Shown here in pieces: positions 5,712-20,088 of a DNA stretch of 32,000 nucleotides. The DNA comes from Nitrososphaera viennensis EN76. Lineage in GTDB: Archaea; Thermoproteota; Nitrososphaeria; Nitrososphaerales; Nitrososphaeraceae. The stretch covers positions 1,200,001 to 1,232,000 of the forward strand of contig NZ_CP007536.1 in the NCBI RefSeq assembly GCF_000698785.1. Direction: 5' to 3'. A model generated the notes under the pieces. It saw only the letters and a list, made by a program, of their open reading frames with translations. It ran no database searches and was not told the origin of the DNA. Position 1 is the first letter of the stretch. Each line of letters starts with the position of its first letter. Position numbers and translations under genes: made by a program.

Positions 5712-6761
5712 TTGGCAACCACTACAGGCAAAGCTGCTATCACCATCGCAACTCTTGGCTCGCACTGCGCGCTGCAGGTGCTAAAGGGCGCAAAGGACGA
5801 GGGCTTTCGCACGCTCCTCGTGTGCGAGAAAAAGCGCGTCGGCCTTTACGAGAGGTTTGGCTTTATCGACGACATGATAATAGTGGACAAGTTTTCAGAG
5901 GTGGCCGGCGACAGGTGCAAGACAATACTGAAGAAAAAGAACGCGATCATCGTCCCGCACGGCACGCTCATATCGCAGATGTCAAGCGACGAGATTGAAA
6001 AAATCGAGACCCCGATCTTTGGCAACAAGTGGATACTGCGCTGGGAGGCCGACAGGGAGATGAAGCAGAAACTGATGGAAGAGGCCGGCCTGCGTACCCC
6101 AAGGCCCATAAAATCCAAGGACGACATCGACGGCCTCTGCATTGTGAAGCTGCACGGCGCCGCCGGCGGCAAGGGCTACTACCTTGCATGGAACCGCGAG
6201 AGCTTTGAGGAAGGCGCAAAGAGGCTCGTGCAGCAGGGCATGATAAGGGGTGAGCAGGACCTTTACATCCAGGAATTCATAAGAGGGGTGCCTGCGTACC
6301 TGCAGTACTTTTACTCGCCAGTGACAAAATCACTGGAGCTTTTGGGCGTCGACAGGCGCTACGAGTCTGACATTGACGGCATCGGAAGGATACCGGCCAG
6401 GCAGCAGCTGGGGGCAGGAGGCGAGCCTTCGTACACGGTCGTCGGCAACATACCACTCGTACTGCGAGAGTCGCTGCTTGACGAGGTGTACAGGATGGGC
6501 GAGGGCTTTTGCAGGGCCGCCGAGCGGCTGGTAAAACCGGGCATGCCGGGGCCGTTCTGCCTTGAAGGCGTGTACGACAGCGAGGGCAAGTTCACCACGT
6601 TCGAATTTTCTGCAAGAATAGTCGCGGGGACGAACCTGTACGTGGACGGCTCGCCGTACTCGGGCCTGCTTTACGACGAGCCAATGAGCATGGGCAGAAG
6701 AATTGCCCGCGAAGTCAAGGTTGCAAGGAAAAAGAACCGCCTTGCAAGCATTGTCACCTAG
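5712..6761 (+). CDS. purP: FAICAR synthetase (ATP-grasp, archaeal PurP)
   Basis: N-terminal ITIATLGSHCALQVLKGAKDEGF is the PurP signature, with ATP-grasp-like length and layout. TTG start with TATA GGATTTTAACC about 30 nt upstream. Confidence 0.9.
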   Translation: MATTTGKAAITIATLGSHCALQVLKGAKDEGFRTLLVCEKKRVGLYERFGFIDDMIIVDKFSEVAGDRCKTILKKKNAIIVPHGTLISQMSSDEIEKIETPIFGNKWILRWEADREMKQKLMEEAGLRTPRPIKSKDDIDGLCIVKLHGAAGGKGYYLAWNRESFEEGAKRLVQQGMIRGEQDLYIQEFIRGVPAYLQYFYSPVTKSLELLGVDRRYESDIDGIGRIPARQQLGAGGEPSYTVVGNIPLVLRESLLDEVYRMGEGFCRAAERLVKPGMPGPFCLEGVYDSEGKFTTFEFSARIVAGTNLYVDGSPYSGLLYDEPMSMGRRIAREVKVARKKNRLASIVT

Positions 6762-8619
6762 ACGCCTTTTTTCTTTGCACAAGCCGGACAACGGCAAGAG
6801 CCGCTGCGGCAGCCAGGGCGATCACGAACGCAGGCGTCGTTATTGACAGCACCTGCACAGAGCCTGCGGCAATTGCAACAAGCGTCGCGACCAGCGCGCC
6901 GGCCGCAACTATCGCGGCAATTGCGACAGTTCTCGAGTTGACCTTTTTCCTTGCCGCTATTGCCGCGCCGGCTGCCAACGGCGAAACATAGACAGCGCCT
7001 ATGAGCGTGCTTGCGACTGCGCCGGCAAGAATAGTTCCGCCTTCCCCTCCGCCCGCGCTTGAAAACGCCTGCTCTGACGCAAGCAATATCCCAAAGAGCG
7101 GGTACAGCGCGGCCTTGACTGTGGCCTGCAGCCACGGCTGCTCTCGCTCGTAATCTGCCACCTGCGGGCTGAACGAGTAATAGACCGCGTTAAATATGCT
7201 CATGAACGCCGAGCCGGACATCGATTTTAGCACATAGTTGTCCCTAAAACCGCGGAGGAATTGCACCTGCGGCGTCAGTTCAGAGCCAAACGCTGCTGTG
7301 GCGATGAGGCACCCGGAAGGCTGCTGCTGTTGTGTTGGTGTGGTGGCATTATTGTTGCTGTTGCCGCTTCCCTGCAGCACCACCACGTCTATCTGGGCCG
7401 ACTCGTTTTCGCCGTTTATCTTTTGCGCGGCCACGCGATAGTTGCCCGGCTCCAGAAACGTGTACTGTTCCGAGAACGTGCCCTGACCGGACGCAAGGTG
7501 CTTGCGGTAGACCTCCCGGCCGTCCTTTGTTATCACAAAGTCAAATGAAGCGTTCCTGACGAGGTCGCCCACGCTGTTGTCCTGAACGTTCATGACAAAC
7601 GTCGTCGGCGAGCCGGACTCTATCACCTCCGGCCCCCACGACATCTCCCACACGTACTTTTCTGTTGTGGAGAGCAGGTCAAGCGGGAACTTGGGCTTGT
7701 CTGCCGGCGCAAGCACAAAGTCCATCGTGTTGCCCGACCCCTTTACGCCAGTCAGCCTGTCGTTGTTGAGCACAAAGTGGACCACGCGCAGGCCCTCGTA
7801 CGAATAGTCGTCAATGAGCACCGCATCCGGAGGGAGCTCCTTGCCGTCGACAGAGCCGCGGTAGCCGTTTACCTGCAGCTCCTTTATGGCCTTTGGAAAC
7901 ATGACTTCCATGTGCACCAGCGGCACCTGCGAGACGTAGGAAGACGCCCAGTCAAACGGCATCGAAAAAGAGATCGAGTTTGTGTCCCTGTCGTATTCCA
8001 GGTTTGAAACGTCGGCATAGTAGGTCATGACCGACATCTTTTGGTCGCCCTCCGCGGTCTGGACGCTAAAGTCCTGCGTCTTTGAGACGCTGACGAACAG
8101 GTCAAACGTGCGGTCCGATTCGACCTGCAGGCCGGTGCTGGAGGTTTGCAGCGTGACTGACACCTTGTACAGCCCGCCGTCGGACATTATCCTGCTTCTT
8201 ATTTCCACGGGCGCGTCCTTGCTGACGTTTACCCTGCCGGGGCTTGCCTGGTCGTTTACCTGTGCCGCGTCCGCATTTGCGTCGGGCACGAGCTTTGCAA
8301 GAACGATGCCGTCTGACGAGCGGAACTCTTGGTCAAGGAGAGTGTTGTTGCCCTTTTCCACCACCACGCGGTAGTCGATGCCGCCGGCGATGGTAGAGTT
8401 GTTTCTAGGGTCAAGCGTCCTTATCGTAAGGGTAGGCGGAGACTTGCCTACGCTTTCGATAAAAGTCGGGGAAATGGATGCCTCAACAGCCACCTGCCTC
8501 CCGCCTATCGTCGTGGGAAGCGACTGGTCTGTGCCAAGGCCGTGGCCGTACGCGCCCAGTGTGGAGCTAAAAACCAGCGTCGCCAGCAAGAGGGGCGCAA
8601 GGTAACGCTTCACAGGCAA
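6754..8619 (-). CDS. Large exported protein: HGLG N-terminal module, thaumarchaeal PEFG-family ectodomains, and a C-terminal Cys-box with a multi-TM region
   Basis: Signal peptide ...FSSTLGAYG|HGLGTDQ. The domain VWEMSWGPEVIESGSPTTFVMNV...FDFVITKDGREVYRK...PGNYRV is paralogous to the ectodomains at 20085-21131. The box GCLIATAAFGSELTPQVQFLRGFRD (nt 7237-7311) is followed by about 3-4 hydrophobic helices and a tail RLVQRKKASR. Confidence 0.85.
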   Translation of the reverse strand: MPVKRYLAPLLLATLVFSSTLGAYGHGLGTDQSLPTTIGGRQVAVEASISPTFIESVGKSPPTLTIRTLDPRNNSTIAGGIDYRVVVEKGNNTLLDQEFRSSDGIVLAKLVPDANADAAQVNDQASPGRVNVSKDAPVEIRSRIMSDGGLYKVSVTLQTSSTGLQVESDRTFDLFVSVSKTQDFSVQTAEGDQKMSVMTYYADVSNLEYDRDTNSISFSMPFDWASSYVSQVPLVHMEVMFPKAIKELQVNGYRGSVDGKELPPDAVLIDDYSYEGLRVVHFVLNNDRLTGVKGSGNTMDFVLAPADKPKFPLDLLSTTEKYVWEMSWGPEVIESGSPTTFVMNVQDNSVGDLVRNASFDFVITKDGREVYRKHLASGQGTFSEQYTFLEPGNYRVAAQKINGENESAQIDVVVLQGSGNSNNNATTPTQQQQPSGCLIATAAFGSELTPQVQFLRGFRDNYVLKSMSGSAFMSIFNAVYYSFSPQVADYEREQPWLQATVKAALYPLFGILLASEQAFSSAGGGEGGTILAGAVASTLIGAVYVSPLAAGAAIAARKKVNSRTVAIAAIVAAGALVATLVAIAAGSVQVLSITTPAFVIALAAAAALAVVRLVQRKKASR

Positions 8620-8659
8620 AAGGGCGCATCAAGGCAAAATAAAGATTTGTAAAAGTACA

Positions 8660-8705
8660 GAAAGAAAAAGGAGGAAGAGAGTAGGAGCCGTGCATCTCTC
8701 CTACT
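8660..8705 (-). terminator. Hairpin plus U-rich tract downstream of gene 8701-9606
   Basis: Perfect 8-bp inverted repeat AGTAGGAG (8680-8687) / CTCCTACT (8698-8705) with a 10-nt loop, overlapping the stop codon. On the transcribed strand it is followed by CTCTTCCTCCTTTTTCTTTCT. Confidence 0.45.
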
Positions 8706-9606
8706 GAGTCATGTTGTTACCTGTCATGTTGCCAGACATGTCCATTGACGACTCCTCATCGTCATCGTGGCTCTCTGCTGCGTGGCCGTCCAGCGGGAGG
8801 TCAAACGCCTTTGCAAGGTTCTCGTGGACCTTGCCGTGCACGATCACGGTCACGCTTTCAAGGGACGCCCGGCTGTCGACTGCACTCTTTAGCTCGTTGA
8901 GGCCGGACCTGAGCGCGGCCATCGAGTCGGCCGAGCCATCCGGCGCGCCTGCGTTGAGCTTGTAGTACAGGCTCGATGCCTTTAGCGTGAGCCACTTGGC
9001 CGACTGGTATGCTGGCATGTTGACAATCTTGTCGTGCGCCTCTTCCGTGCTGCCAGTCATGTTCATGCTGCTGCCAGAGTGATCATGACTTCCTCCTTCT
9101 GCCATTCCGTAGGCACCCTGGTAGGATTCCAGAATTCCGTCCACCAGGTTTGCAAATACAAGAGCCCTTACCGTCGAGTTGGTCAGCTGGCCGCTGTCAA
9201 TCCTGACGGTGACGGTCTCGCCAAGCAGGCCGTTGATGTCTCTTATCTGCTGGACGATTTCAGACCTAGGGCTGTTGCCTTCAACAGAAGTCTTTAGCTT
9301 TTCCAGCGCCGCCGGGAGGTCCGTTCCAAGCCTCTGGTTCTTTTCAGATATTTCCTTGATGGTATCTGCGCTCAGGTGTCCTGCCGCATGCTCGGCGTGC
9401 TCTCTGGCAAGCTCGTGGTTGCCCATATAATTCCCGCCTACCAGCATGAGATGAATCTTTAATGTGTCCATGTTCGCAAGAAACGCGGCGCTTTCGTCGC
9501 CGGAGAAGTTGTGCGCAAACGCCCTCTGCCCTGCCGACGCGTAGGCCAGTCCTCCACCTACCATCATGGCGGCAAGCAAGAGCGCGGTGGTGCTTTTTCT
9601 TTCCAT
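8701..9606 (-). CDS. Exported helical His/Met-rich protein (putative metal, likely copper, binding)
   Basis: Signal peptide with cleavage at AYA|S or AFA|HNF. His cluster HELAREHAEHAAGH. Met/His tracts GGSHDHSGSSMNMTGS and C-terminal HAAESHDDDEESSMDMSGNMTGNNMTQ. Confidence 0.8.
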   Translation of the reverse strand: MERKSTTALLLAAMMVGGGLAYASAGQRAFAHNFSGDESAAFLANMDTLKIHLMLVGGNYMGNHELAREHAEHAAGHLSADTIKEISEKNQRLGTDLPAALEKLKTSVEGNSPRSEIVQQIRDINGLLGETVTVRIDSGQLTNSTVRALVFANLVDGILESYQGAYGMAEGGSHDHSGSSMNMTGSTEEAHDKIVNMPAYQSAKWLTLKASSLYYKLNAGAPDGSADSMAALRSGLNELKSAVDSRASLESVTVIVHGKVHENLAKAFDLPLDGHAAESHDDDEESSMDMSGNMTGNNMTQ

Positions 9607-9641
9607 AGATGTAGAAACCGGTCATCCTTTAATTAGGGTTC

Positions 9642-9657
9642 TAGTACACCGGCCGAA
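9642..9657 (+). promoter_or_regulatory. Motif copy 1: TAGTACA-CCGG-CCGAA
   Basis: Lies 36 nt upstream of ATG 9606. Read in the gene direction: TTCGG-ccgg-TGTACTA, 5 nt, CTAATTAAAGG (TATA), 21 nt, ATG. Confidence 0.6.
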
Positions 9658-9669
9658 GTAGTAGCAGTT

Positions 9670-10233
9670 TTAGATCTTGTTTCTAGAGTGCAAATAGACT
9701 GCAATGCCGGCGATAACTGCCGCCGCAGGCGTCACGTAGTATAGCAACAGCTCGTCAAGTGGTATGCCGGGCGGAAATGCGCTCACGTCAAAGCTTGCCA
9801 CAAGGGGCTGCGACGCGTATTTTGCATCGCCGGGGATGCGGGTCTGCACGGTCACGACGTAGCTTCCCGGCGTGTCAAACACATACCTTGTCGTGATGTC
9901 GCTTATCTCGTACAGGCGGTAGGGCTCCTGATGAATCGGGTTGCCCGTCTGCTTGTCCGCAATCACCACTGATGTGTAGACATTGTAGATGTTGTTGCCG
10001 TCGCTGGCAAGCACGCTAAAGTTGAGAGTCGAGTTGGTGCCGGTTATCGGGCTTGCAGGGTACGGCTGGAAGATTATCTGGTATCCGTCCACTTCCTTTG
10101 TGGTGCCGAAAAAGTGGGCGTACGCCGGCACAAAGAACATGCCTGTAAAAAAGAGCATGACGACTGCAAGGAAGTGCAGTGACAACAACAACAGCAGCAG
10201 CATCGGCCTGTTTTGGCGCTTTGCATATTTCAA
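9670..10233 (-). CDS. Exported, C-terminally anchored FixH/YtkA-like beta-sandwich protein
   Basis: Signal peptide ...FFVPAYA|HFFGT. Ig-like pattern VDGYQIIFQPYPASPITGTNSTLNFSV...PGSYVVTVQ. C-terminal TM helix plus SRNKI. The start may be TTG 10233 or ATG 10203. Confidence 0.75.
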   Translation of the reverse strand: MKYAKRQNRPMLLLLLLSLHFLAVVMLFFTGMFFVPAYAHFFGTTKEVDGYQIIFQPYPASPITGTNSTLNFSVLASDGNNIYNVYTSVVIADKQTGNPIHQEPYRLYEISDITTRYVFDTPGSYVVTVQTRIPGDAKYASQPLVASFDVSAFPPGIPLDELLLYYVTPAAAVIAGIAVYLHSRNKI

Positions 10234-10932: not shown

Positions 10933-11451
10933 CTAGAGCTCGTCCAACATTTCAACGTAATTGTCGACGACCTTGTCGGCAAAGGTCCGGCGGTACTTTG
11001 ACAGCACGTCGGCGATGAGATCCTTGTTCGCAAGGCTGTACAGCTGGTACTCGCCGTACCTGACGGACAGTATGCCGGCATCCTTCAGGCGCTTCAGGTG
11101 CGCCGAAACGGTGGAAGGCGCTTTTCCCGTGTGCTCCACTATTTCTGCAAAGGTGCACATGTCCTGCGACAGTATGAATGACACTATCTCGCGTATCGGC
11201 TCGTGCCTGATGTAGCCAAGCACCTGCGACTCGCTTTCCGGCACGTTGACAGGGTAATAGCGGGTGATGCGCGCCTGCTGCCTGTCCACCCTCACCACGC
11301 TTGCCCTTTCAAGGGCGGACAGATGGTACGTCAGCACGCCGTTTGCAAGGCCGGTCGACCGCAAGAGCTCGCGGTAGCGGATGCCCGGCTCGCGCTCGAT
11401 GAGGTTCAGGAGGAGATCCTGGGTGCTGACGGTCTCTGACACTTCTTCCAT
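10933..11451 (-). CDS. Transcriptional regulator with two tandem winged-helix (ArsR-like) domains
   Basis: wHTH 1: GIRYRELLRSTGLANGVLTYHLSALERASVVRV. wHTH 2: CTFAEIVEHTGKAPSTVSAHLKRLKDAGILSV. The ATG is 1 nt after the stop of the upstream 4-TM gene, and AGGTGA lies 9 nt upstream. Confidence 0.85.
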   Translation of the reverse strand: MEEVSETVSTQDLLLNLIEREPGIRYRELLRSTGLANGVLTYHLSALERASVVRVDRQQARITRYYPVNVPESESQVLGYIRHEPIREIVSFILSQDMCTFAEIVEHTGKAPSTVSAHLKRLKDAGILSVRYGEYQLYSLANKDLIADVLSKYRRTFADKVVDNYVEMLDEL

Positions 11452-11452
11452 C

Positions 11453-11860
11453 TCACTTGTTCACCTTAAGCACTCCTAGCCCGAACAGGCTGAGCATTGC
11501 AAGCACGATGATGTGCGGGAATTCTATATCAAGATTGGGGATCTGCAAAAAGAACAAGAGCCCGACTGCCTGGAACAGGTAGAACACCTCTGCGATTCCG
11601 AGCGCGATGAACCCAAGCGTCATGTAAAGCGTCCTTGCCCCGCCTGTGCGCCTGTACGCAGTCAGCGAGACAATGCTGAGGAACGAGGCTATCACGAGGC
11701 TTGCGATGTGGAGGAGGATGTGGGACAGCATGGACGGGTGCGTGACGTGCGGGAGAACGAGGGGCGCAATGATGCCTACCACTATGGCCGCGGTGAGCCC
11801 AAATACCAGAGGCTTTGACGCCGTCGCCTCCTGAACAGGCTGGTTACTACCCGTCTGCAT
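11453..11860 (-). CDS. 4-TM membrane protein with a His-rich first loop, translationally coupled to the double-wHTH regulator
   Basis: Four hydrophobic helices. The stretch LPHVTHPSMLSHILLH carries four His residues. It has its own TATA box and a motif copy upstream. Confidence 0.75.
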   Translation of the reverse strand: MQTGSNQPVQEATASKPLVFGLTAAIVVGIIAPLVLPHVTHPSMLSHILLHIASLVIASFLSIVSLTAYRRTGGARTLYMTLGFIALGIAEVFYLFQAVGLLFFLQIPNLDIEFPHIIVLAMLSLFGLGVLKVNK

Positions 11861-11878: not shown

Positions 11879-11898
11879 TTTTGGCCTAATAAAGGGAT

Positions 11899-11914
11899 TG
11901 GTACAAAGCCAGAA
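11899..11914 (+). promoter_or_regulatory. Motif copy 3: TGGTACA-AAGC-CAGAA
   Basis: Read in the gene direction: TTCTG-gctt-TGTACCA, 5 nt, TTTATTAGG (TATA), 24 nt, ATG 11860. Confidence 0.6.
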
Positions 11915-11928: not shown

Positions 11929-13860
11929 CTAGCCCAGCGCGGCAAGCGTCTTTTTCATCTGCAGCCGGCTCTGCCTCGCATAAAAGGCGCTCCCGCCTGC
12001 CACCGCCGCTGCAAGGCCCAGCGCAAGGGCCGCAAACGAGTCAAAGCTTGGCAGCATTTCCGTGTTGCTGTCTTCTTCATCCATCTCAGGCATCGCAGGC
12101 ATTCCCGGCGGCATGGCCTGCCCGCTTACCAGAGTCTCGGTAAAGCTGTGGTTCAGGTCGTACGCGTTTACCCTCTGCGCGATAAAGTCCATCTTCCATT
12201 CGCCTGCCTGGCTCAGGTAGCCTCCGGTGGCCGAATAAACGCCGTCGCCGGTTTTTTGCAGCGTGACTACCAGCGGCCCCACCCCGGCGTCCACGTTTGT
12301 GAGCCGCAGCACCACGCTTGCAATGTTTTGCGGGGGATTGGTGCCTCCTTCCAAAAGCGTGGCGGTAAACGTGTTGACCCCCGGCTGGAAAGGAGATATT
12401 TCCAGCGCGATGTCAACACCGTCCACGTTCACGCGGTGCATAAAATGCGGGCCGGACTGCTGATGCGTCGTCATGGCCTGTGCGGGCGGCGACGTTATCG
12501 TGAGAAAAGAGGCTGCAAGTAGCACTCCTATCCCGACAAGCGCCTCGGCCTTGACGGTCCTGCCAAAGCGCGACGTGGCCGCGTATTCCTGGCCGCCGGA
12601 TCTTGCAAGCACGACTATTTCCCGGTGCAGCCTGAGCTGGTGGTACGCCCCAAGGAGCACCATGGGAAGGGCGGCTGCAAGTTTTGTTGCCAAGCTTGTC
12701 CCGTACGGCGTGGAAAAGAGCGAGTCCAGCGCGTGCAGGTGGACCCACGCCATGTAGATCCCAGTCACGCCGATGACCCCAAGCGACACGGTGGCTACGA
12801 GCGAAAATCTTGGCAGCGCGGTCGCAAGCTGGCGTGGCGACCGCCTTGTCGCCGGCGCAAACACTAAAGCCAGGTAGAACAGGCCCCCGACCCACGCGGA
12901 CACGGCCATAAAGTGGGCCCAGTCAAGCGCCGTCGCAAGCGCAGGCAGGAACGGCGCGGCAGAGTTGTGGCTCAGCATGCTGTTTGAGAACAGCGAGACC
13001 GCGCCTGCCGCAAGGATGGCGTACAGCAGCAGTAGTAGTAGCGGCTTTTTGTCGCCTTTTTTCATCATGCAGGCAAGGACCGCGCCGGCTGCTACCACTA
13101 TTGCCGACGCTGCAAGCCGGATTAGCCATACGGCGCCGGCTGGCGAGCTTGCAACAAGTGACTGCGCGGCCTGCCCAAGCGGGACGCCGGCGGCCTCGGC
13201 AAGGTTGCCGGCCTGCAAGAGCATGATCACTGTGGCAGACGCGGCCACGGCGCCTGCGCTTGCAAGCAGGATGATTGAAAACCTGCGCAGGAAACGGCCT
13301 GCTGCTCCTTCTTCTTCAAGCTTTTTCCGCAGGATTGCGTGCGCCATCGCCCCGCCGACGATTGCCGTCTGCGCTACGATGAGGGGCCACTTGGCAAGCG
13401 CGTCTTCGTACGACGTGACGTACCGCGTCTCACTTGGCCCTCCTGCCGGCACCACCTCATGGCCCATGCCAAAGACGTACGCGCCTTCCGTGATGTGCCC
13501 GTCGTCAAGCGACATCGTGAACCACGACACCGTGTATATGCCGTCCCTGACCTTGCCTGTATCCAGCGTCACGGCAGCCTGCCTGCCGTTTTCGCCAATG
13601 ACTGCAAAGTCGTTGTTGTCGATGCGCTGGCCCTGCGCGTCTGCAACCCGGATGTAGCTCACATTCGGGTCTGGGCGCTCTGAAAACGATATTGCTAGCT
13701 GTTGCGGGAGCTCGGATTTTTCGTGGAACTGCGCGTTTGGCGCAATTGAATATTTCACAGGCACCGCGTGGCCAAATGCAGGCTCTATCGCTGCTGAGGG
13801 CAGCAACAGCGCTAGGGCTGCCAGTGCAAAAACAATGAGGAGGGGCCGGCGGCTTGACAT
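11929..13860 (-). CDS. copCD: CopC-CopD fusion with a C-terminal FixH/YtkA-like domain, a Met-rich linker and a terminal TM helix
   Basis: I place the start at ATG 13860 (MSSRRPLLIVFALAALALLLPSAAIEPAFG|HAVPVKYS). The CopC domain has an N-terminal His and SLDDGHITEGAYVFG (the D-x-H motif). About 8 CopD-like TM helices follow. The Ig-like domain reads VDIALEISPFQPGVNTFTATL...GEWKMDF. The Met-rich stretch is QAMPPGMPAMPEM. The track's upstream extension to 13968 overlaps the upstream gene and is basic junk. Confidence 0.9.
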   Translation of the reverse strand: MSSRRPLLIVFALAALALLLPSAAIEPAFGHAVPVKYSIAPNAQFHEKSELPQQLAISFSERPDPNVSYIRVADAQGQRIDNNDFAVIGENGRQAAVTLDTGKVRDGIYTVSWFTMSLDDGHITEGAYVFGMGHEVVPAGGPSETRYVTSYEDALAKWPLIVAQTAIVGGAMAHAILRKKLEEEGAAGRFLRRFSIILLASAGAVAASATVIMLLQAGNLAEAAGVPLGQAAQSLVASSPAGAVWLIRLAASAIVVAAGAVLACMMKKGDKKPLLLLLLYAILAAGAVSLFSNSMLSHNSAAPFLPALATALDWAHFMAVSAWVGGLFYLALVFAPATRRSPRQLATALPRFSLVATVSLGVIGVTGIYMAWVHLHALDSLFSTPYGTSLATKLAAALPMVLLGAYHQLRLHREIVVLARSGGQEYAATSRFGRTVKAEALVGIGVLLAASFLTITSPPAQAMTTHQQSGPHFMHRVNVDGVDIALEISPFQPGVNTFTATLLEGGTNPPQNIASVVLRLTNVDAGVGPLVVTLQKTGDGVYSATGGYLSQAGEWKMDFIAQRVNAYDLNHSFTETLVSGQAMPPGMPAMPEMDEEDSNTEMLPSFDSFAALALGLAAAVAGGSAFYARQSRLQMKKTLAALG

Positions 13861-13883: not shown

Positions 13884-14639
13884 CTACTTGTTGTTGCTGC
13901 CGCCGCGCCTTGCCATTGCCACAGCGCCTATGGCTATGCCCACTATGCCAAGGCCGATTCCCGCCCACGCCATGCCGCCATCACTTCCACCTGATGCTGC
14001 CGGCGGCGCCTTGACGGACGCAACGTCGCTCTGGACCTGCGCAATGGCCTTGCTCACGTCGTTGTTCTGCATGTATGGCTCGGGGAACCCTGCGTCGGTT
14101 CGCGACTCAAAGCAGCCATAGCCTCCGGCTACACCCTTTCTCACCACGCCTTCTGACACCGTGACGGCAGAGTTGTCTGGCTGCGCGCCAGCCTCGCCTG
14201 CAGGGGTGCACGAGAACGTGAGGTCGACCGGCGTGTTGTTTATCGTCCCGAATATGCGGTACGTGTACGTCGTCGCAATGGTCGGGTAGAACGGCGCGCT
14301 GTACTGGCCTGGCGAGTTGAAGACGGGCTCTAGTGGCATCTCTTTCTTTTTGTCCCCTGCGCCGATCTCAACCTTTAGTGTCTGCTCAAGGCCCGTGACA
14401 GGAGTCGCTCCTGCCGCGCGAGAGTTCATCGGGTCGCTCGGGTCTGCGTTGAGGACGCGAAGGTCAACCCCGGTCTTGTCGTCCACAAACGCAGGCTCGT
14501 TGAGCGAGCCTATCACTATCAAGTAGTCCTTGCCGCCTATCGTGTAGAGCTGGCGCTGGTGCGCATAGGCCGGCGCCGCAAAAGCGCCTGTCAAGAGGAG
14601 CGCTATCGCTACCCCAACCATAATTATTGCTAGTTTCAT
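13884..14639 (-). CDS. Exported, C-terminally anchored protein with a mature N-terminal His; tentatively YcnI/DUF1775-like
   Basis: Signal peptide ...GAFAAPAYA|HQRQLYTIGGKDYLIVIGSLNEP. The spacing from His1 to the N-E pair resembles the His1...VPNE spacing of YcnI. A C-terminal TM helix and basic tail match YcnI architecture. The gene lies immediately upstream of copCD. Confidence 0.8.
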   Translation of the reverse strand: MKLAIIMVGVAIALLLTGAFAAPAYAHQRQLYTIGGKDYLIVIGSLNEPAFVDDKTGVDLRVLNADPSDPMNSRAAGATPVTGLEQTLKVEIGAGDKKKEMPLEPVFNSPGQYSAPFYPTIATTYTYRIFGTINNTPVDLTFSCTPAGEAGAQPDNSAVTVSEGVVRKGVAGGYGCFESRTDAGFPEPYMQNNDVSKAIAQVQSDVASVKAPPAASGGSDGGMAWAGIGLGIVGIAIGAVAMARRGGSNNK

Positions 14640-14716: not shown

Positions 14717-17683
14717 TTAGCTCTGACCTTTCATCGCCATACGGACGTTGCGCTTCAGGTCTGTTGCGCTCTTGGCGTACATCATGGCGCTTATCGCTAT
14801 GCCAGCGGCTATCGCGGGCCCGGCAAGGTCGGCAAGCGAAAAGCCGACGTTTGTCACAGGGCTTGCCGTTTCTTCTGGCGCGCCTGCGCCTCCCGGCTGC
14901 TGCGGCGCCGGCGCGGAAGGCTTGGCCGTTATCGCGATGCTGCCAAGGGCTGATCCTTGCTGTTCTGCAAACCAGATCTTGCCCTTGTCGTCAGCGACCA
15001 AGTATTGAATGGTCGAGCCCGAGGTCGGTATCTTGGCCTCAGCACTTGCCCCTGTCCTTGGATCGAATACGGCGACCCGGTCTATTGTGTGCAGTGCAAC
15101 CCATATGTTGCCATAGCTGTCAGCCGCCATTCCAAAGGGCAGGCCGGCGTCGTTCAGGGCAGGATACTCGCGGAACGTCTCAAAGAGCGGGTTGAATGCC
15201 GTGACAGTGTGCCCTTCATGCTCGGTGACAAAGAGGTCGTGGCCGTTTGGATCAGGGAATATGGAAGTAGGTATTATGAGCTTGTTCTGGCCCTTTGGCG
15301 CGTATTCCGTGATGTTGCCAGTTGCAGGATCTATGATTGCGATCTTGCCTACCGCCGATTCTGGCATCCACAGGTTGCCATTACGGTCTACCGATAGAGC
15401 TACAGGTCCGGAGTTGGGCGACGGTATATCTATTGCAGAGAATTTTTCAGAGCGTGGGTCAAACTTGAAGACTTTGTTTGGCTGAGACACTGGCATCCAC
15501 AGGTTGCCATTGCGATCTATTGCAAGACCTGTTGCTATGCCGTTTTCTGACAGTTGGAATTTGCGGTCTTGCTTTGTTTGTGGGTCGTACTGCCCAAGAT
15601 ATGATGGCAAGGATGTTGACGGTGGCGGCGGGCTAATATACCACAACTTGCCGTCGCTGCCAAGTGCCACCATTGTGACAAGGTTGGCACTATCTGGACG
15701 GCTGCTCAATTTGTGTACCGTATAGTTGCCTGTAGCAGTGTCAAATTGGAATATTCTGCTTGAACCCGGATTCGTGTCGCCGACCCATATCGACTGACGA
15801 GCCGCGTCGAATACAGGGTACAACAAGAGGCTCTTTTCCGGCGTCTTGTACTCCTTGACCTCAAATCCGAGGCTCGATATCGCCGGCCTTACAGTGACGT
15901 CAAGGCTTGCGACGATGTTTGACGCGGAGGAGCGCACGCCTTCCACCTGGATAGACCACACGCCCGGCAGGCTGAAAGCCGCGTCTGCGGCAAACGTGCC
16001 GTCCTGCTGGCGCGTCGTGTTGATGCTTATCGGGCCTATCCCCTTTTCGACCTGCGTAAGCTTTATCGTTGCAGCGCTGACGTCTGTAGCAGGCTTGTTG
16101 TCACTGCCAGCGAACGCAAGCGTGAACCTGTTCTGGCCCACGGCAAACGGGTCCACCGCGAGGTTTACCTTGCCGTCAGGAGCGTACAGCGTCTGGGTGA
16201 ATTTTGTGGATGCGGCAGCGGCTGTCTGCTGCGTGGCGGCAAACGCTTCCTGCGAATCCTGTGGCTTGCCGTACTGCGGGAACTCGCCGGCGGGAAGCGA
16301 GCTGTTGGCCATTATGGACACCATCAGGAGCAGCGCTATGCCGACGCCGGCCTCTGCCTTCAAGCTCTTGGCAAAGCGCCCATAGCCGTTTGACTGGACT
16401 GAAGAGCCCCCTACCATTGCGACCGTCGCCTTTTTCTGTATCACAAACTGCGAGTATCCGCCCATTGCGACCATCACGCCGGCAAGGCCCAGCTTGATCG
16501 CAAGGACCTTGCCGTACGTGGACGCAAGCGTCAATGAAAGGTCGCTCTCGATGAGGAAAAGCAAGAGAGGACCGGTTATGATCGCAATGCCAAGTATCGT
16601 GACCACTATTGTGGAAAAGCGCGGTATCAGGATTGAGATCGCTGCGGCCCTTGCGCGCTCGTCAGGCATCGCAAGGATCTTTGGCACTGCCACAAAGCCC
16701 ATCAGTATCAGGCCGCCTATCCAGATGCTTGCGGCGGTGTTGTGGAAAAAGTCAAGCAGGATTGCAGTTATCTGTCCGGTGGCCGCGCCATGCGCTATCA
16801 GGCTTGACGTCACGAGCACCGCAAGGCCCATTACGAGTATCGCAAGCATCTCGGCCCTGCTTGGGAGCGCGCCGGTCCGGGTCAGCTTGCGGTACACAAA
16901 CACAGCGATTATCATTAGGATGGACGACTCGATCATGCGCGTCGTCCAGACGTTGCCAAACTTGGTCGCTATCGCCTGGGCTATCCCCGCGTTGATGTCG
17001 ATCGCCTGCACGGCTATCATGGCAAAGTTTGAGCCAATCACGATGGCCGCGCCGATTATGATGAGTTTTACCATCTTCCGGTCGATTGCGGCGCGCTGGG
17101 AGGATATTGCGCCTGCAAGCCATGGCACGCGCGCAAGCGGCTTCCACAGCCACAGCGAGCCAAACGCCGCGCCCACAACTATCACCTGCCCGACCATGCC
17201 GGGGAACCTTGACGCCGACTCTAGTGGAGACAGGATCTGCGAGGGTGGCGTCGCAGGGCCCGCGCCAGGCGTTACGGCGGTGCCTATCCCAAACGTAAAG
17301 GCGCTTTCTACCACGTGGCCGTCAACTGCGGAAAGCACTCTTGTGGTGACGGTGTAGATGCCGTCAGGCAAGCCCGGCTGCAGTGAAACTCCAAGGGTCT
17401 GGGTGTCGCCTCCCACGTTGTGGGGGTCGTTCTTGTCGACCCGCGCTCCGTCAGGGGCAAGCACCGACATCGTGCTGTACGAGAGCTCTATCGGCTCTGT
17501 GAACGTGACCGTCACCTCTGCCGGCGAGGAAGACAAGCTCTGAAACGGTTTGGGAGAAGAGCTTACTGTTATCGGGTGTGCAAAGGACTGCTGCTGCGGC
17601 GGCATGCCTGCAATGGCGAGCGTCGCCACTACCATGGCAACGGCAACGACGTACAGCAGTGACTGTGGCCGGCCAGACAACAC
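14717..17683 (-). CDS. CopC-CopD-Ig-like fusion extended by a beta-propeller (NHL / streptogramin-lyase-like) and a C-terminal TM anchor
   Basis: Signal peptide ...PPQQQSFA|HPITVSSSP. CopC motif SAVDGHVVESAFTFG. About 8-10 CopD TM helices. Ig-like domain VNLAVDPFAVGQNRFTLAF...GVWSIQV. The propeller blades carry repeated D(R/S)xGNLW(M/V) motifs: DRNGNLWMP twice, DSYGNIWVA, DDKGKIWFA, GSDGKLWYI. The terminal TM helix is IAAGIAISAMMYA. Confidence 0.9.
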   Translation of the reverse strand: MLSGRPQSLLYVVAVAMVVATLAIAGMPPQQQSFAHPITVSSSPKPFQSLSSSPAEVTVTFTEPIELSYSTMSVLAPDGARVDKNDPHNVGGDTQTLGVSLQPGLPDGIYTVTTRVLSAVDGHVVESAFTFGIGTAVTPGAGPATPPSQILSPLESASRFPGMVGQVIVVGAAFGSLWLWKPLARVPWLAGAISSQRAAIDRKMVKLIIIGAAIVIGSNFAMIAVQAIDINAGIAQAIATKFGNVWTTRMIESSILMIIAVFVYRKLTRTGALPSRAEMLAILVMGLAVLVTSSLIAHGAATGQITAILLDFFHNTAASIWIGGLILMGFVAVPKILAMPDERARAAAISILIPRFSTIVVTILGIAIITGPLLLFLIESDLSLTLASTYGKVLAIKLGLAGVMVAMGGYSQFVIQKKATVAMVGGSSVQSNGYGRFAKSLKAEAGVGIALLLMVSIMANSSLPAGEFPQYGKPQDSQEAFAATQQTAAAASTKFTQTLYAPDGKVNLAVDPFAVGQNRFTLAFAGSDNKPATDVSAATIKLTQVEKGIGPISINTTRQQDGTFAADAAFSLPGVWSIQVEGVRSSASNIVASLDVTVRPAISSLGFEVKEYKTPEKSLLLYPVFDAARQSIWVGDTNPGSSRIFQFDTATGNYTVHKLSSRPDSANLVTMVALGSDGKLWYISPPPPSTSLPSYLGQYDPQTKQDRKFQLSENGIATGLAIDRNGNLWMPVSQPNKVFKFDPRSEKFSAIDIPSPNSGPVALSVDRNGNLWMPESAVGKIAIIDPATGNITEYAPKGQNKLIIPTSIFPDPNGHDLFVTEHEGHTVTAFNPLFETFREYPALNDAGLPFGMAADSYGNIWVALHTIDRVAVFDPRTGASAEAKIPTSGSTIQYLVADDKGKIWFAEQQGSALGSIAITAKPSAPAPQQPGGAGAPEETASPVTNVGFSLADLAGPAIAAGIAISAMMYAKSATDLKRNVRMAMKGQS
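15361..15511. repeat. Intragenic blade repeat: a 22-nt perfect repeat one blade (129 nt) apart
   Basis: CTGGCATCCACAGGTTGCCATT occurs at 15361-15382 and 15490-15511. Both copies encode the NGNLWMP blade motif. Confidence 0.85.
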
Positions 17684-17727
17684 GATCGTAATACGCGCCG
17701 GACCATATTTGACTCTTGCTTACTTTA

Positions 17728-17743
17728 TGGTACAAATCCCGAA
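17728..17743 (+). promoter_or_regulatory. Motif copy 5: TGGTACA-AATC-CCGAA
   Basis: Lies 45 nt upstream of GTG 17683. Read in the gene direction the motif abuts CATAAAGTAAG, and a second TATA-like AAATAT lies about 25 nt from the start. Confidence 0.6.
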
Positions 17744-17781
17744 CTGGAATCTTGAGTACAAATCCCGAACTGGAATCTTGA
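17730..17781 (+). repeat. Perfect 26-bp tandem duplication (two units), containing motif copies 5 and 6
   Basis: GTACAAATCCCGAACTGGAATCTTGA occurs at 17730-17755 and again at 17756-17781. Confidence 0.95.
17754..17769 (+). promoter_or_regulatory. Motif copy 6: GAGTACA-AATC-CCGAA (within the tandem duplicate)
   Basis: This is the second unit of the 26-bp tandem repeat. Confidence 0.5.
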
Positions 17782-17872
17782 TTTGTGGCTAATTACCTTG
17801 TAACTAGACCCACAGTTACCGTCGTACCAATGCCATGAAAAGGGTCGAGTATTATAGCATGGCACGATTCAT

Positions 17873-17882
17873 GTTTTAAACC
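17873..17882 (+). promoter_or_regulatory. Consensus TATA box GTTTTAAACC with no ORF downstream
   Basis: The same 10-mer forms the predicted TATA boxes of fbp (24841-24850) and ppdK (28503-28512). Here the next listed ORF start is about 300 nt away. Confidence 0.45.
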
Positions 17883-17908
17883 TTCTCACAAGATTACGGT
17901 AAAGATAT

Positions 17909-17924
17909 TTTACGGCTTTACGGC
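17909..17924 (+). repeat. Tandem 8-mer TTTACGGC (two units)
   Basis: Perfect duplication located at the predicted transcription start for the orphan TATA box. Confidence 0.8.
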
Positions 17925-17995
17925 AAATTTAATTAGCAGCGCTTACCACAGGTTACCATACGTTACGTTAAACCTAGGGTAAAACTTGACGCAAA

Positions 17996-18065
17996 GTAGC
18001 AGGTGGCTCTCACGCTCAGCGACCCTCGCTGATGGGTTGGGCGTGTTGGCCGGGCCACCTGCTAT
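17996..18065 (+). ncRNA. GC-rich structured element: long outer stem enclosing an inner hairpin; candidate small RNA or DNA structural site
   Basis: AGCAGGTGGC (17998-18007) pairs perfectly with GCCACCTGCT (18054-18063), extendable by T17997-A18064. The inner hairpin is TCAGCG-ACCCT-CGCTGA (18016-18032). It is a GC-rich patch inside AT-rich DNA and is flanked by paired TTACCA(C/T)A boxes. Confidence 0.3.
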
Positions 18066-18153
18066 TACTTCTGACTGCCTGTACTGATTTTAAACATTGC
18101 TGTCTTTACCATATTTTACAGTAATTTACCACATGCTCGAAAGGTAACAAAAT

Positions 18154-18213
18154 GTATGCCAAAGTATGCTAGAGTATGCAAAGGCATGCTAGAGTATGCA
18201 AAAACATGTTGAA
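18154..18213 (+). repeat. Six 10-bp-phased units built on GTATGC
   Basis: GTATGC starts at 18154, 18164, 18174 and 18194. GCATGC starts at 18184 and ACATGT at 18204. A 20-bp higher-order unit (18164-18183 against 18184-18203) is 18/20 identical. Confidence 0.85.
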
Positions 18214-18274
18214 AGAACTGCACGGGTGCGGCGGGCGAAAAGCTGCAGCAATAAAGTCATATAACAAGGCCATA

Positions 18275-18691
18275 ATGTCCAAGTCAATGTCTGTACTCGA
18301 TTACCTGCTTCATCATAGCACTGCCAGTTCTTCTATTCTAGTAGCGTTAGCGGTAGGTATTTTTACAATTTTGACACTGTTTACTCAAGTTGCTATTGGC
18401 TCATTTGCGTGGATAGTATTGTCAATCACCTATGTATTTACTTGTATTGCCGGCATTCTCATATTTCGCAATTGGGCCGTTGCAGAAATATTGTTACGTC
18501 ACTTCTCACAAGAGAATACAGGCGATACCGAAGTAAACCTGCATGCAATAGTCGGCGAAAGCAAGATAAGAAAGATGTTCTTTTTTGAACCATTTGCTAA
18601 CAAAGATACATTTTATCTGGCAGCGCTAATCGTGATTGTTTTCTTGGCTATCATCATTTGGGCTGCTTTTGCATTTCAACTCTACCACTAA
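18275..18691 (+). CDS. Small 3-TM membrane protein, unknown function (island ORF)
   Basis: MSKSMSVLDYLLHHSTASSSILVALAVGIFTILTLF... has three hydrophobic helices. The track start at 18176 would translate the GTATGC repeat array, so I prefer ATG 18275. The start remains uncertain. Confidence 0.5.
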   Translation: MSKSMSVLDYLLHHSTASSSILVALAVGIFTILTLFTQVAIGSFAWIVLSITYVFTCIAGILIFRNWAVAEILLRHFSQENTGDTEVNLHAIVGESKIRKMFFFEPFANKDTFYLAALIVIVFLAIIIWAAFAFQLYH

Positions 18692-18830
18692 CACCGTGGC
18701 CAGCATTTCACCAATCGTCATGAATGGGTCCATTGTGACAAGATTGGCACCCCTACGCACCTTGTAGTACCTTTCAAGGCGTTGTCGCACCCGTGCGCTT
18801 TTTATTCAAGCATATCTTTTTGCAGTATGA

Positions 18831-19265
18831 TTGTCATCTAACAAGAGCCAAGTCGATTTTGACTGTCCGTGGTGTGGCAAGTATCAAAGTAAACAGGTTT
18901 ACAACGGTGCAGAAACCGAGACGATTTGTTCAGAATGCAAAAAGCTCGTTGGTATTATTACAGATGCAACAGGCAAGCCTATAGTCATAGCCACAAAGGT
19001 GCATAAGTCAACGCTAACACTAAGCCCAGAAATGGCCGAGACCAAGCTCGGTAAGACCGAGGCCGATATTGAGAAGGCAAGAAAGGAGGCAGAAAGACGC
19101 GGTTTGGTGGTTGAAAGCAAAGTCTACGGTGCTGCGATTGAAATCATAGACAGATTGCGTGATCAGTTGAAACAACAAGACGAAATGTCGAAAGAAATTA
19201 TGAGATTGAAAGAACAAATCGAATTGCTTAACAAACGTATCGAGCTTTATAGAATACTCAAATGA
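18831..19265 (+). CDS. Zinc-ribbon plus coiled-coil protein (island ORF)
   Basis: CPWC-x17-CSEC zinc ribbon, then a long heptad-like C-terminus (EADIEKARKEAERRG...LKQQDEMSKEIMRLKEQIELLNKRIELY). The TTG start is supported by TATA CTTTTTATTC about 29 nt upstream. Confidence 0.6.
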   Translation: MSSNKSQVDFDCPWCGKYQSKQVYNGAETETICSECKKLVGIITDATGKPIVIATKVHKSTLTLSPEMAETKLGKTEADIEKARKEAERRGLVVESKVYGAAIEIIDRLRDQLKQQDEMSKEIMRLKEQIELLNKRIELYRILK

Positions 19266-19339
19266 TATCATATCTGGACGGACCTATTTTGACATTTCAA
19301 GCGAGTCAGATTCAGAAACCAACTAAGAATATTCAGTTG

Positions 19340-19355
19340 TGGTACAAATCCCGAA
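19340..19355 (+). promoter_or_regulatory. Motif copy 7: TGGTACA-AATC-CCGAA
   Basis: Lies 40 nt upstream of ATG 19396 and about 13 nt upstream of TATA GATTATAAGC. It is in the opposite orientation relative to its gene compared with copies 1-6. Confidence 0.55.
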
Positions 19356-19395
19356 CAATCATCAAAGATTATAAGCACTGCAAGATAATTTTTCC

Positions 19396-20088
19396 ATGAT
19401 GCTGATGAAAAAAGCCGCCCTTGCTCTTGCACTTGCAGTCCCGATCATCTTGCTTGCTGGACTTCCTGTTCGTCCAGCGTATGCCCACACCTCCACGGTG
19501 GCAGGCGACATCAAGATGGAGTTAGGCTGGGGAACAGAGCCCCCGCTTCTTGGGCAGATGAACACTGTCGTGGTTGAGGTGACGAGAGTCTCTGACGGCA
19601 AGCCGGTCGCAAACGCCTTTGCGTCTGCAAAATTGACCGTGATAAAGGGCGGCGACAGCAAGGACCTCGAAGTCCTTCCTGGAGAGGCTGCCGGCCTCTA
19701 TGTCGCGCAGATAATCCCGACGCAGCTTGGCCAGATAACGGCGAGCATAACAGGCACCATCGCCGGCCAGCAGGTGAACAACAGCGTCCAGATAGAAGAC
19801 GTAGAAGACACCAAGACGCTCAACTTCCCCGCGTCAAGCAACCCGAACCAGGGCGTCCCGCAGGACTTTGTAAACCAGATGCGCACGACCATATCCGACC
19901 TGACCGGCCAGATTGACGCTGCCAAGACGTCCGCGCAGAACGCAACCGACGCGGCTCAAAAGGCTGCTCAGGATGTTGAAGCGATAAAGGCAGAAGCCGA
20001 CAGGGCTTACCTGATTGGCATGACAGGCATCGGAGTGGGGGTCGCAGGCATCGCCATTGCAGCCCGCTCCCTTTCCCGCAAGGCCTAA
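19396..20088 (+). CDS. Exported protein with a mature N-terminal His, a beta-sandwich domain, a coiled coil and a C-terminal TM anchor
   Basis: Signal peptide ...LPVRPAYA|HTSTVAGDIKMELGWGTEPPLLGQMNTVVVEV, paralogous in pattern to 13884-14639 and 9670-10233. The Ala/Gln-rich helix is DAAKTSAQNATDAAQKAAQDVEAIKAEADRA. The TM helix is followed by RSLSRKA. Confidence 0.85.
   Translation: MMLMKKAALALALAVPIILLAGLPVRPAYAHTSTVAGDIKMELGWGTEPPLLGQMNTVVVEVTRVSDGKPVANAFASAKLTVIKGGDSKDLEVLPGEAAGLYVAQIIPTQLGQITASITGTIAGQQVNNSVQIEDVEDTKTLNFPASSNPNQGVPQDFVNQMRTTISDLTGQIDAAKTSAQNATDAAQKAAQDVEAIKAEADRAYLIGMTGIGVGVAGIAIAARSLSRKA

Follow-up and report, generated by a model that had tools for sequence, protein, structure and literature searches.

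The closest described counterpart of the locus considered here, the CopC/CopD copper island of the ammonia-oxidizing archaeon Nitrososphaera viennensis EN76, is the ycnKJI operon of Bacillus subtilis, in which YcnK is a regulator and YcnJ is an importer of the CopC-CopD-YtkA type. The third protein, YcnI (family DUF1775), is an extracellular protein with a transmembrane (TM) anchor that holds Cu(II) by means of the amine and the N-delta atom of His27 together with Glu50 and Trp137 (PMC8424229, PMC12362106). It binds Cu(II) at femtomolar affinity, its gene lies beside that of YcnJ, and the CopC domain of YcnJ is its partner in Cu(II) exchange (PMC8424229, PMC12362106). CtaK, a stand-alone YtkA protein, and the YtkA domain of YcnJ help to assemble CuA (PMC13344008). 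A 2025 survey of signal strapping in Nature Communications (PMC12537917) described DUF4198, DUF6702, and the anglerases Ang-1 and Ang-2, which favor nickel and other metals. The principle of a chelate built on an N-terminal histidine is known from CopC, from YcnI, from lytic polysaccharide monooxygenases (LPMOs), and from that survey; the scaffolds proposed for it here are new.

Ammonia-oxidizing archaea (AOA) need copper for ammonia monooxygenase, for plastocyanins, and for the terminal oxidase, and copper supply limits nitrification. What has been established about how these organisms acquire the metal is limited to the presence of CopC/CopD. The copper response of the N. viennensis island has been described by Reyes et al. 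(2020; PMC7785015), who reported a 25-gene cluster around copC/D_a and copC/D_b in which 15 genes are upregulated under copper limitation. The "exported proteins of unknown function" of the cluster were left uninterpreted, and histidine is named in that study solely in connection with multicopper oxidases. A full-text search of the literature returned no paper that connects AOA, CopC aside, with proteins of the N-terminal-His or histidine-brace kind.

We analyzed a stretch of 32,000 nucleotides that spans the island (contig NZ_CP007536.1, positions 1,200,001 to 1,232,000; hereafter the window). Seven of its eleven exported proteins are predicted to begin with histidine after removal of the signal peptide; two of the seven are CopC-CopD proteins, and the other five have no CopC match. 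The reading that we favor, with moderate confidence, is that these five are N-terminal-His metal binders that feed the CopC-CopD importers, a predicted analogue of the YcnI-YcnJ pair. An invariant N-terminal histidine would mark such exported proteins as probable metal-binding partners of the importers. It would also bring YtkA-like, helical, and immunoglobulin-like (Ig-like) scaffolds onto the short list of N-terminal-His (histidine-brace-type) proteins, and would suggest that the role of YcnI has been solved a second time, outside DUF1775 and in bacteria as well.

Histidine at the predicted mature N-terminus

We labeled the eleven exported proteins P1 to P11 (Table 1). All eleven open reading frames (ORFs) lie at the coordinates listed, each with a hydrophobic, signal-like N-terminus, and P6 is 100% identical to a hypothetical protein of N. 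viennensis. The ORFs of the region map one-to-one onto NVIE_014230-014380 of Dataset S1 of Reyes et al. (PMC7785015), a mapping that is based on gene order and anchor genes rather than on sequence. The sequence-only reading had placed histidine directly after a predicted A-x-A/G cleavage site in six of the eleven and had called a seventh, P2, ambiguous. At the codon level this arrangement was confirmed and the count came to seven, each with a small-x-small site followed by His. The predicted +1 residue of the remaining four is Asp (P4), Gln (P9 and P10), or Ala (P11).

Table 1. Exported proteins, regulatory genes, and promoter motifs of the island, in window coordinates; His codons are on the strand of the gene
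Feature	Coordinates	Strand	Residues before His	His codon	Remarks
P1, NVIE_014240, 621 aa	6754..8619	-	AYG	8542-8544	signal peptide, His26 at +1
P2, NVIE_014250, 301 aa, helical	8701..9606	-	AFA	9511-9513	His32 at +1
P3, NVIE_014260, 187 aa	9670..10233	-	AYA	10114-10116	His40 at +1; database start is Met11
P4, NVIE_014270, Ig-like, C-terminal TM helix	10391..10924	-			Asp at +1; paralogue of P3 and P1
P5, NVIE_014300, CopC-CopD fusion with putative YtkA domain	11929..13860	-	AFG	13768-13770	His31 at +1, D-G-H
P6, NVIE_1457, 251 aa	13884..14639	-	AYA	14559-14561	His27 at +1; 23 nt upstream of P5
P7, NVIE_014310, CopC-CopD fusion with putative YtkA domain and C-terminal beta-propeller	14717..17683	-	SFA	17576-17578	His36 at +1, D-G-H
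P8, NVIE_014340, 230 aa	19396..20088	+	AYA	19486-19488	His31 at +1
P9, NVIE_014350, Ig-like, PEF-type C-terminal anchor	20085..20639	-			Gln at +1; hhalign to C-terminal domain of P1 (P1C) 96%
P10, NVIE_014360, Ig-like	20649..21131	-			Gln at +1; hhalign to P1C 98%
P11, NVIE_014370, plastocyanin-like blue copper protein	21190..22149 (ORF); 21190..22017 (protein)	-			Ala at +1; plastocyanin/amicyanin models
ArsR/winged-helix transcription regulator, NVIE_014280	10933..11451	-			HTH_5, HTH_24, HTH_HVO_0163_N; log2 fold change 2.47
Small polytopic membrane protein, NVIE_014290, His-rich helices	11453..11860	-			ORF; log2 fold change 2.72
Cu-limitation promoter motif	11897..11914	-			upstream of 11453-11860 (regulator operon); 1 mismatch to TTCSGSMTTTGWACYANT
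Two tandem Cu-limitation promoter motifs	17726..17769	-			upstream of P7
Cu-limitation promoter motif	19338..19355	-			upstream of P8, on the opposite strand; 1 mismatch
Weak copy of Cu-limitation motif	9640..9657	-			3 mismatches; 34-51 nt upstream of P2 start codon

We fixed the cleavage sites by family conservation, a crude home-made small-x-small rule for single sequences being too weak alone. Relatives were gathered by a scan of genome contigs with CopC-CopD (3 loci), by a metagenome scan anchored on P6 (80 loci), and by database searches that supplied 120 relatives each for P6, P3, and P8. For P6, His was found at +1 in all 121 database sequences and in all 78 metagenome relatives aligned over the site, down to 39% identity. 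The corresponding counts were 121 of 121 database sequences for P8, and 119 of 119 full-length database sequences together with 4 of 4 relatives in metagenome loci for P3. In the P1 family, whose N-terminal motif reads A-x-G↓H-G-x-G-x-[DE] (the arrow marks the predicted cut), an exhaustive HMMER search returned 41 relatives (26-53% identity) whose alignment includes the N-terminus, and His was present in 38 of 42 sequences including P1 itself (Gln in two, Asp in two). The CopC domains have it in 49 of 50 relatives and in 49 of 49 CopC-CopD proteins from the metagenome loci, and the orthologues of P7 keep A↓HP. Orthologue alignment, proposed earlier as a check on the histidine, thus showed it to be near-invariant in every family, with P1 the lowest.

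The ambiguity of P2 was resolved in favor of histidine. Its orthologues read small-x-small↓H[TN]F[ST] in 13 of 13 cases from the fetched loci and in two more (loci L086 and L087). The alternative site AYA↓S, on which the doubt had rested, is not kept; an uncultured Nitrososphaera (L003) reads TYS-T there. This locus is syntenic with the island, its CopC-CopD protein is 56% identical, and the histidine is kept in the orthologues of all seven proteins. Three further loci, two from Nitrososphaerales and one from Nitrosopumilus, repeat the pattern, the proteins without His keeping Asp, Gln/Glu, or Ala; orthologues of P4 have Asp at +1 in 5 of 5 cases plus two more, and those of P11 have Ala.

The residues around the predicted cut behave as expected of a signal-peptidase site. 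The −3/−1 rule holds in every family: the P6, P3, and P8 families have Ala, Gly, or Ser at −1 and Ala, Val, Thr, or Ile at −3, with Ala at −1 in 121 of 121 sequences of both P6 and P8 and Ala or Val at −3 in 121 of 121 of P8. Column entropy falls at +1, from 1.50 to 0.28 in P6, from 2.70 to 0.89 in P3, and from 3.12 to 2.08 in P1, and in P8 the His is invariant within an arm whose positions +2 to +6 are highly variable. In every family this histidine ranks first in conservation, and conservation begins exactly there. Because of this conservation, the drop in entropy, and a +1 residue that is stable for each orthogroup from Nitrososphaera to Nitrosopumilus, we regard the histidine as a selected, orthogroup-specific feature of the predicted mature N-terminus. 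The cut itself is placed by conservation and by the −3/−1 rule.

The crude rule does not agree with this placement throughout, since it prefers upstream sites in P2 (AYA↓S), P6 (AFA↓AP), and P7 (AIA↓G). The specificity of archaeal signal peptidase is, moreover, less well mapped than that of its bacterial counterpart. Cleavage could therefore have been mispredicted, or a signal anchor could stay uncleaved, in which case the histidine would not be N-terminal and no brace would form. We consider this very improbable: the alternative sites are not kept in orthologues while small-x-small↓His is, conservation sets in at the histidine and not before it, and the N-terminal His ligand of bacterial CopC domains has been established experimentally (PMC12362106).

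The frequency of the feature in the island also exceeds a simple chance expectation. If His is assumed to occupy +1 in 2-5% of proteins with signal peptides, a range based on general background about signal peptides and on the share of His in the proteins concerned (0.4-4.8%), the probability of seven or more among eleven is 4e-10 to 2e-7, and that for the independent families alone (4 of 7) is 5e-6 to 2e-4. Six of 36 other exported ORFs in the fetched loci start with His as well; all of these loci are cop clusters and so offer no neutral background, and at least three of the six ORFs look like divergent members of the same families. Further exported proteins with His at +1 in other cop clusters, none with a Pfam match, are L058 2037-2612 (+; AQA↓HENRQVGEY...AEP), ORF 5922 of L004 (-; AFA↓HAHMTL...GHTDEP), and L069 10566-11159 (+; AMA↓HSFGYP), which appear to be divergent P6/P8 and P3-like members.

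Could the histidine be conserved for some purpose other than binding metal, be it structural, catalytic, or connected with processing or sorting, with its enrichment in the island reflecting the shared ancestry of a few paralogous families? P6 with P8 and P1 with P3 are indeed paralogue pairs, which leaves at most four or five independent origins, and four relatives of P1 tolerate Gln or Asp at +1. The sequence-only reading had taken four non-CopC proteins for possible new binders; the conserved His and the linkage to CopC-CopD support it in part, and the four do not represent four independent inventions, as 13884-14639 pairs with 19396-20088 and 6754-8619 with 9670-10233. We nonetheless judge a non-metal explanation improbable. 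His at +1 recurs in four unrelated contexts (CopC, a YtkA-like fold, Ig-like family A, and a helical bundle), and exported paralogues that have Asp or Gln at +1 use the same A-x-A sites, so that His is not needed for processing. An invariant residue within a variable arm, as in P8, is atypical of packing.

Copper response and linkage to CopC-CopD genes

Co-regulation with the importers is known from the literature. In Dataset S1 of PMC7785015, from which all log2 fold changes given here for copper limitation are taken, both CopC-CopD genes are induced (P5, +2.68; P7, +2.20), and three of the five non-CopC genes with His at +1 are induced with them: P2 (8701-9606; +2.64), P6 (13884-14639; +2.80), and P8 (19396-20088; +1.44). 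P2 is the most abundant transcript of the island. Their neighbors P4 (+1.55), the ArsR regulator (+2.47), and the small membrane protein (+2.72) respond likewise.

The promoter motif associated with copper limitation in that study is TTCSGSMTTTGWACYANT. At up to two mismatches we found four matches in the window, starting at 11897, 17726, 17752, and 19338, against 0.06 expected. Those at 17726 and 17752 are tandem copies of the kind described ahead of copC/D_b (PMC7785015), and they probably drive P7-P6-P5, the gaps between these genes being 77 and 23 nt. The match at 19338 precedes NVIE_014340 (P8), for which the motif has been reported (PMC7785015). The copy ahead of P2 has three mismatches, a level at which chance would give 0.89 matches per window, so that its position alone makes it suggestive.

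Gene order ties the same proteins to the importers. Where the flanks were long enough to tell, 55 of 59 P6 homologues lie directly beside a CopC-CopD ORF of the same strand, which is downstream in 43 cases and upstream in 12, and P2 often lies just upstream of P6. The N. viennensis island itself runs from PurP through four exported proteins, the ArsR regulator, a small membrane protein, and a CopC/D gene, and continues with an exported protein, the second CopC/D gene, two small genes, three exported proteins, the plastocyanin, and an ABC substrate-binding protein. The whole of it is syntenic in L003, L086, and L087, in the order plastocyanin, P10, P9, P8, CopC-CopD, membrane protein, ArsR, P4, P3, P2, P1, PurP. 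Nitrosopumilus sp. GCA_028066405 (L084 7316-12197) has P1, a CopC-CopD-propeller gene, and a P8 orthologue (AYA↓HTTVV...GWGTEPP) within 8 kb, a single 298-aa gene separating P8 from the CopC-CopD gene. On a 232-kb metagenome contig (L066 9935-13476), a P6 homologue of 44% identity (SA↓HEMATYNIG...GSLNEP) lies directly upstream of a 929-aa CopC-containing protein. Because this contig has RecG, PilM, and peptidoglycan-binding genes it is bacterial, and the P6 family is therefore not confined to archaea.

Scaffolds of the seven proteins and their candidate metal sites

P5 and P7 were scored against Pfam cutoffs of 23.3 bits for CopC (PF04234), 32.1 for CopD, and 25.9 for YtkA. P5 scores 69.6 bits with CopD, 41.8 with CopC, and 19.6 with YtkA; P7 scores 65.2 with CopC, 44.1 with CopD, 102.5 with Vgb_lyase, and 22.0 with YtkA, the YtkA scores being sub-threshold in both. 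The N-terminal domains of the two (in 11929-13860 and 14717-17683) thus belong to PF04234, and they carry the ligand set of the CopC Cu(II) site of the C0-1 type, a predicted His1 (AFG↓H and SFA↓H) and DGH. That both domains retain this second motif had been noted from the sequence, and D-G-H was present in 50 of 50 relatives. By these signatures they are, as far as sequence can tell, bona fide CopC domains.

For P1, P2, P3, P4, P6, and P8, no Pfam family match was found. P6 and P8 are paralogues (hhalign 94%, E 1.8e-7). P6 consists of a predicted signal peptide, a beta-sandwich with two invariant Cys, a linker, and a C-terminal TM anchor, and an AlphaFold2 model of the mature protein shows the sandwich over residues 1-150 at a predicted local distance difference test score (pLDDT) of ~90. 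P8 consists of a YtkA-like beta-sandwich, an alanine-zipper stalk, and a C-terminal TM anchor. The invariant residues include H1, R3, N21, E22, P23, D27, D28, C118, and C150 in P6 and are H1, G14, W15, E18, and P19 in P8; the two subfamilies share an invariant G-x-x-x-E-P just past the first hairpin, and Trp15 is invariant in P8 only.

By profile the pair is closer to YtkA/FixH-like domains than to DUF1775. Neither P8 of the window nor the P6 family matched Pfam YtkA (PF13115), which 32 of 56 P8-family members match (best E 5.7e-5, below the gathering score); 41 of 56 match Alanine_zipper, and NCBI lists one P8 relative as a "FixH family protein." The hhalign match of P8 to the YtkA domain of the CopC-CopD proteins is weak (48%, E 1.8e-4). 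The P6 family, divergent members included, had no Pfam or PDB sequence match, and the P8 family profile found nothing meaningful among PDB sequences. DUF1775 (PF07987) had no match at E<=1 among the window proteins, 51 P6-family and 56 P8-family members, and seven divergent relatives of the P6/P8 type.

The system nevertheless resembles YcnI-YcnJ in several ways. P5 and P7 share CopC and CopD with the importer and have a putative, sub-threshold YtkA domain. P6 and P8, like YcnI, combine a signal peptide, an N-terminal His, a beta-sandwich, and a C-terminal TM anchor and are encoded near the importer; both have an acidic residue about 20 residues past His1 (E22 in P6, E18 in P8; the Glu of YcnI comes about 23 residues later), and P8 alone adds an invariant Trp. 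The cluster has a helix-turn-helix regulator, and expression rises when copper is scarce, as in Bacillus (PMC13344008). The archaeal system differs in having two paralogous importers and two paralogous partners. The likeness to CtaK and YtkA lies in the YtkA matches of the P8 family, in the FixH-named relative, and in a membrane-tethered, extracytoplasmic location. CtaK, however, is a lipoprotein with a lipidated N-terminal Cys and so has no free N-terminal His, whereas P6 and P8 are tethered by a C-terminal helix rather than a lipid.

Neither mature P6 nor mature P8 contains any histidine besides His1. A canonical brace of the LPMO/CopC type, in which the amine, N-delta, and N-epsilon hold Cu(II) in a T-shaped geometry, needs a second conserved His and is therefore impossible for them, and a mono-His brace of the YcnI type is possible; the histidine brace inferred from the sequence alone is thus excluded in its two-His form for 13884-14639 and 19396-20088 and may stand in its mono-His form. 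P3, too, has no other invariant His. P6 and P8 would bind Cu(II) through the amine, the N-delta atom, and a carboxylate, for example that of the invariant Glu of G-x-x-x-E-P, with Trp15 a further candidate in P8. They would then exchange Cu(II) with the adjacent CopC domain and so fill a YcnI-like role on the domain family of CtaK and YtkA.

P2 is helical and has no membrane anchor; it carries an internal hypervariable Met/His-rich loop and a tail rich in Met, His, and Asp. It had no Pfam or PDB sequence match. Its invariant residues are H1, F3, E57, Y131, Y169, H226, and H230. We propose P2 as an abundant soluble copper scavenger of the pseudo-periplasm, for which His1, His226, and His230 would be candidate ligands. 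The mature protein of N. viennensis starts with H-N-F-S (9505-9513, minus strand), which makes residue 2 a sequon for N-glycosylation; the H-T-F-S of most orthologues has none. A glycan beside His1 could affect metal binding.

P1 and P3 belong to another group. One Ig-like family takes in P3, P4, P9, P10, and both the N- and the C-terminal domain of P1 (hhalign 94-98%; P3 with P4 94%, P4 with P1C 95%). Within it, histidine is limited to the P1 and P3 orthogroups, where it sits on a short arm before the first strand, and P4, P9, and P10, with Asp or Gln at +1, serve as internal controls. The sequence-only reading had seen in three of the non-CopC proteins a shared pattern of spacing. Taken literally, it is present in full only in P3 (9670-10233) and in its first half in P1 (6754-8619), and it marks beta-sandwiches in general rather than His proteins specifically; we therefore replaced it by the profile-profile comparison with hhalign given above. 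The His+1 proteins have plain TM anchors or, in P1, a CFI-box-CTERM domain, instead of the PEF[PAG]-type motifs that precede the C-terminal helix in P9, P10, and P11.

P3 has an HFFG arm, an eight-stranded beta-sandwich, and a C-terminal TM helix (AlphaFold2 model, pLDDT 89.8), and its invariant residues are H1, G4, N32, E70, S72, and D73. A Foldseek search of the PDB with the model returned generic Ig folds as well as PmoD, CrdA, CopC, and FetP, at E-values of 1e-4 to 3e-3 and template-modeling (TM) scores of 0.4-0.66, and the family profile found nothing meaningful among PDB sequences. The model superposes on the soluble domain of PmoD (PDB 6CPD; E 2e-4, TM score 0.62), both proteins have a C-terminal TM helix, and both occur in ammonia or methane oxidizers. 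This similarity is at the level of a generic Ig-like fold, macroglobulin, the Wzt CBD (carbohydrate-binding domain), and NPC2 scoring equally. PmoD, in work from 2018 attributed to Fisher et al., reportedly has a copper site that contains Cys; P3 has no Cys and therefore cannot form such a site. Membership in PmoD, PCuAC, DUF4198, or LPMO families was rejected in each case because model matches were lacking or the defining ligands were absent.

P1 comprises an HGLGxD arm, repeated Ig-like domains, a CFI-box-CTERM domain (CFI_box_CTERM; 77.6 bits, cutoff 40), and a C-terminal hydrophobic region. Beside its histidine, G2, [DE]6, W199, H211, E213, D245, and H256 show little or no variation among the 42 sequences. 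P1 and P3 would, like the others, be N-terminal-His metal binders, P1 adding the invariant His211-x-Glu213 and His256. Either a binder or an enzyme could be built around a site composed of His1, His211-x-Glu213, and His256, and P1 might instead be a copper- or metal-dependent enzyme, LPMO-like or otherwise oxidative. Its size and multidomain build, its constitutive expression, the invariance of the eight positions in 38-42 of 42 relatives from Nitrososphaera and Nitrosopumilus, and the typical association of bis-His braces with oxidative enzymes (PMC8424229) speak for this, but P1 resembles none of the LPMO families in Pfam, and we hold an enzyme of this sort to be improbable. NCBI calls a Nitrosopumilus relative of P1 a "peptidase," a name that no Pfam or NCBIfam model supports.

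In the mechanism that we propose, signal peptidase would cut the seven exported proteins directly before His, and each mature protein would expose a chelate of free alpha-amine and imidazole, as CopC, YcnI, and LPMOs do for Cu(II). Two of the seven would serve as the CopC domains of YcnJ-like CopC-CopD-YtkA importers, with His1 and Asp-x-His as ligands. The other five, from three unannotated families, would capture Cu(II) outside the cell and hand it to the importers. The N-terminal His exposed by predicted cleavage is common to CopC and all seven; the five differ from CopC in having no CopC match, P6 and P8 in lacking a second His, and P2 in being helical. The arrangement also recalls signal strapping, in which a signal peptide is followed by His and an N-terminal His on varied folds captures metal for permeases. 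It differs from it in being archaeal and in having CopC-CopD rather than HupE/UreJ as the partner, and DUF4198 and DUF6702 had no Pfam match in any window protein or family member. A stronger version, which we put forward only tentatively, is that these are three new N-terminal-His cuproprotein families forming an extracellular Cu(II) relay from P2 to P6/P8 to CopC to CopD, with P1 a new histidine-brace copper enzyme. Such a relay would be an independently evolved counterpart of YcnI-YcnJ that occurs in AOA and some bacteria.

Several observations, beyond the preferences of the crude cleavage rule, weigh against the proposal that the non-CopC proteins bind metal for the importers. P1 (+0.11) and P3 (−0.03), like P10 and P11, do not respond to copper limitation, and the four P1 relatives with Gln or Asp at +1 keep all other conserved residues. 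Internal YtkA domains of CopC-CopD proteins, domains that have no N-terminal His, share the Glu-Pro motif, which may therefore be structural rather than a ligand. The P6 model had no Foldseek match in the PDB at E<1e-3, whether to YcnI with its solved cupredoxin-like fold, to CopC, or to any copper protein. The Nitrosopumilus orthologue of P1 lies between a protein with a LON-substrate-binding domain and a NikR-like regulator (NikR_C) with a ZnuABC transporter (ZnuA/ABC/ABC-3), and DUF4198, itself an N-terminal-His protein, prefers Ni(II) over Cu (PMC12537917).

The expression of P1 and P3, the neighbors of P1 in Nitrosopumilus, and the preference of DUF4198 would fit a reading in which the histidine chelates a metal other than copper (nickel, zinc, or cobalt) in some or all of the non-CopC families, above all P1 and P3. 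We regard this as unlikely. P2, P6, and P8 are induced specifically by copper limitation, and a promoter motif is common to them and the CopC-CopD genes; P6 abuts CopC-CopD in nearly all of the informative loci; and, by general coordination chemistry, amine-imidazole chelates obey the Irving-Williams series except where the geometry is facial (PMC12537917). The analysis itself shows the sequence features, conservation, paralogy, synteny, and fold class, and the literature supplies the co-regulation; the cleavage site, metal binding, the identity of the metal, and the relay are inferred. A good case for copper can be made only for P2, P6, and P8, and the metal and the role of P1 and P3 are less certain.

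Other genes of the island

The ArsR regulator gene (10933-11451) and the gene for the small membrane protein (11453-11860) are syntenic in L003, L086, and L087 and always occur as a pair in these loci. The membrane protein, which had no family match in domain-model searches, has several His in its predicted helices (LPHVTHPSMLSHILLHIAS) and could be a sensor or a transport partner. P11 passes the PEFG-CTERM sorting-signal model (27.8 bits, cutoff 25).

The strongest induction by copper limitation in the island is that of two genes just upstream of PurP (window 4289-5630, plus strand), with log2 fold changes of 4.75 and 4.59. One encodes a CarboxypepD_reg protein of 313 aa that also has an internal TM segment, and the other encodes a 136-aa DUF7475-like membrane protein; within three mismatches the published promoter motif was not found at these genes.

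Finally, the divergent P7 and P8 genes, which are directly adjacent in L003, L086, and L087, stand 1.7 kb apart in the window (17684-19395). The gap has a G+C content of 0.47, against ~0.57 elsewhere, and holds two small genes (18176-18691 and 18831-19265), neither of which is copper regulated. It looks like a lineage-specific insertion between two copper-responsive promoters.

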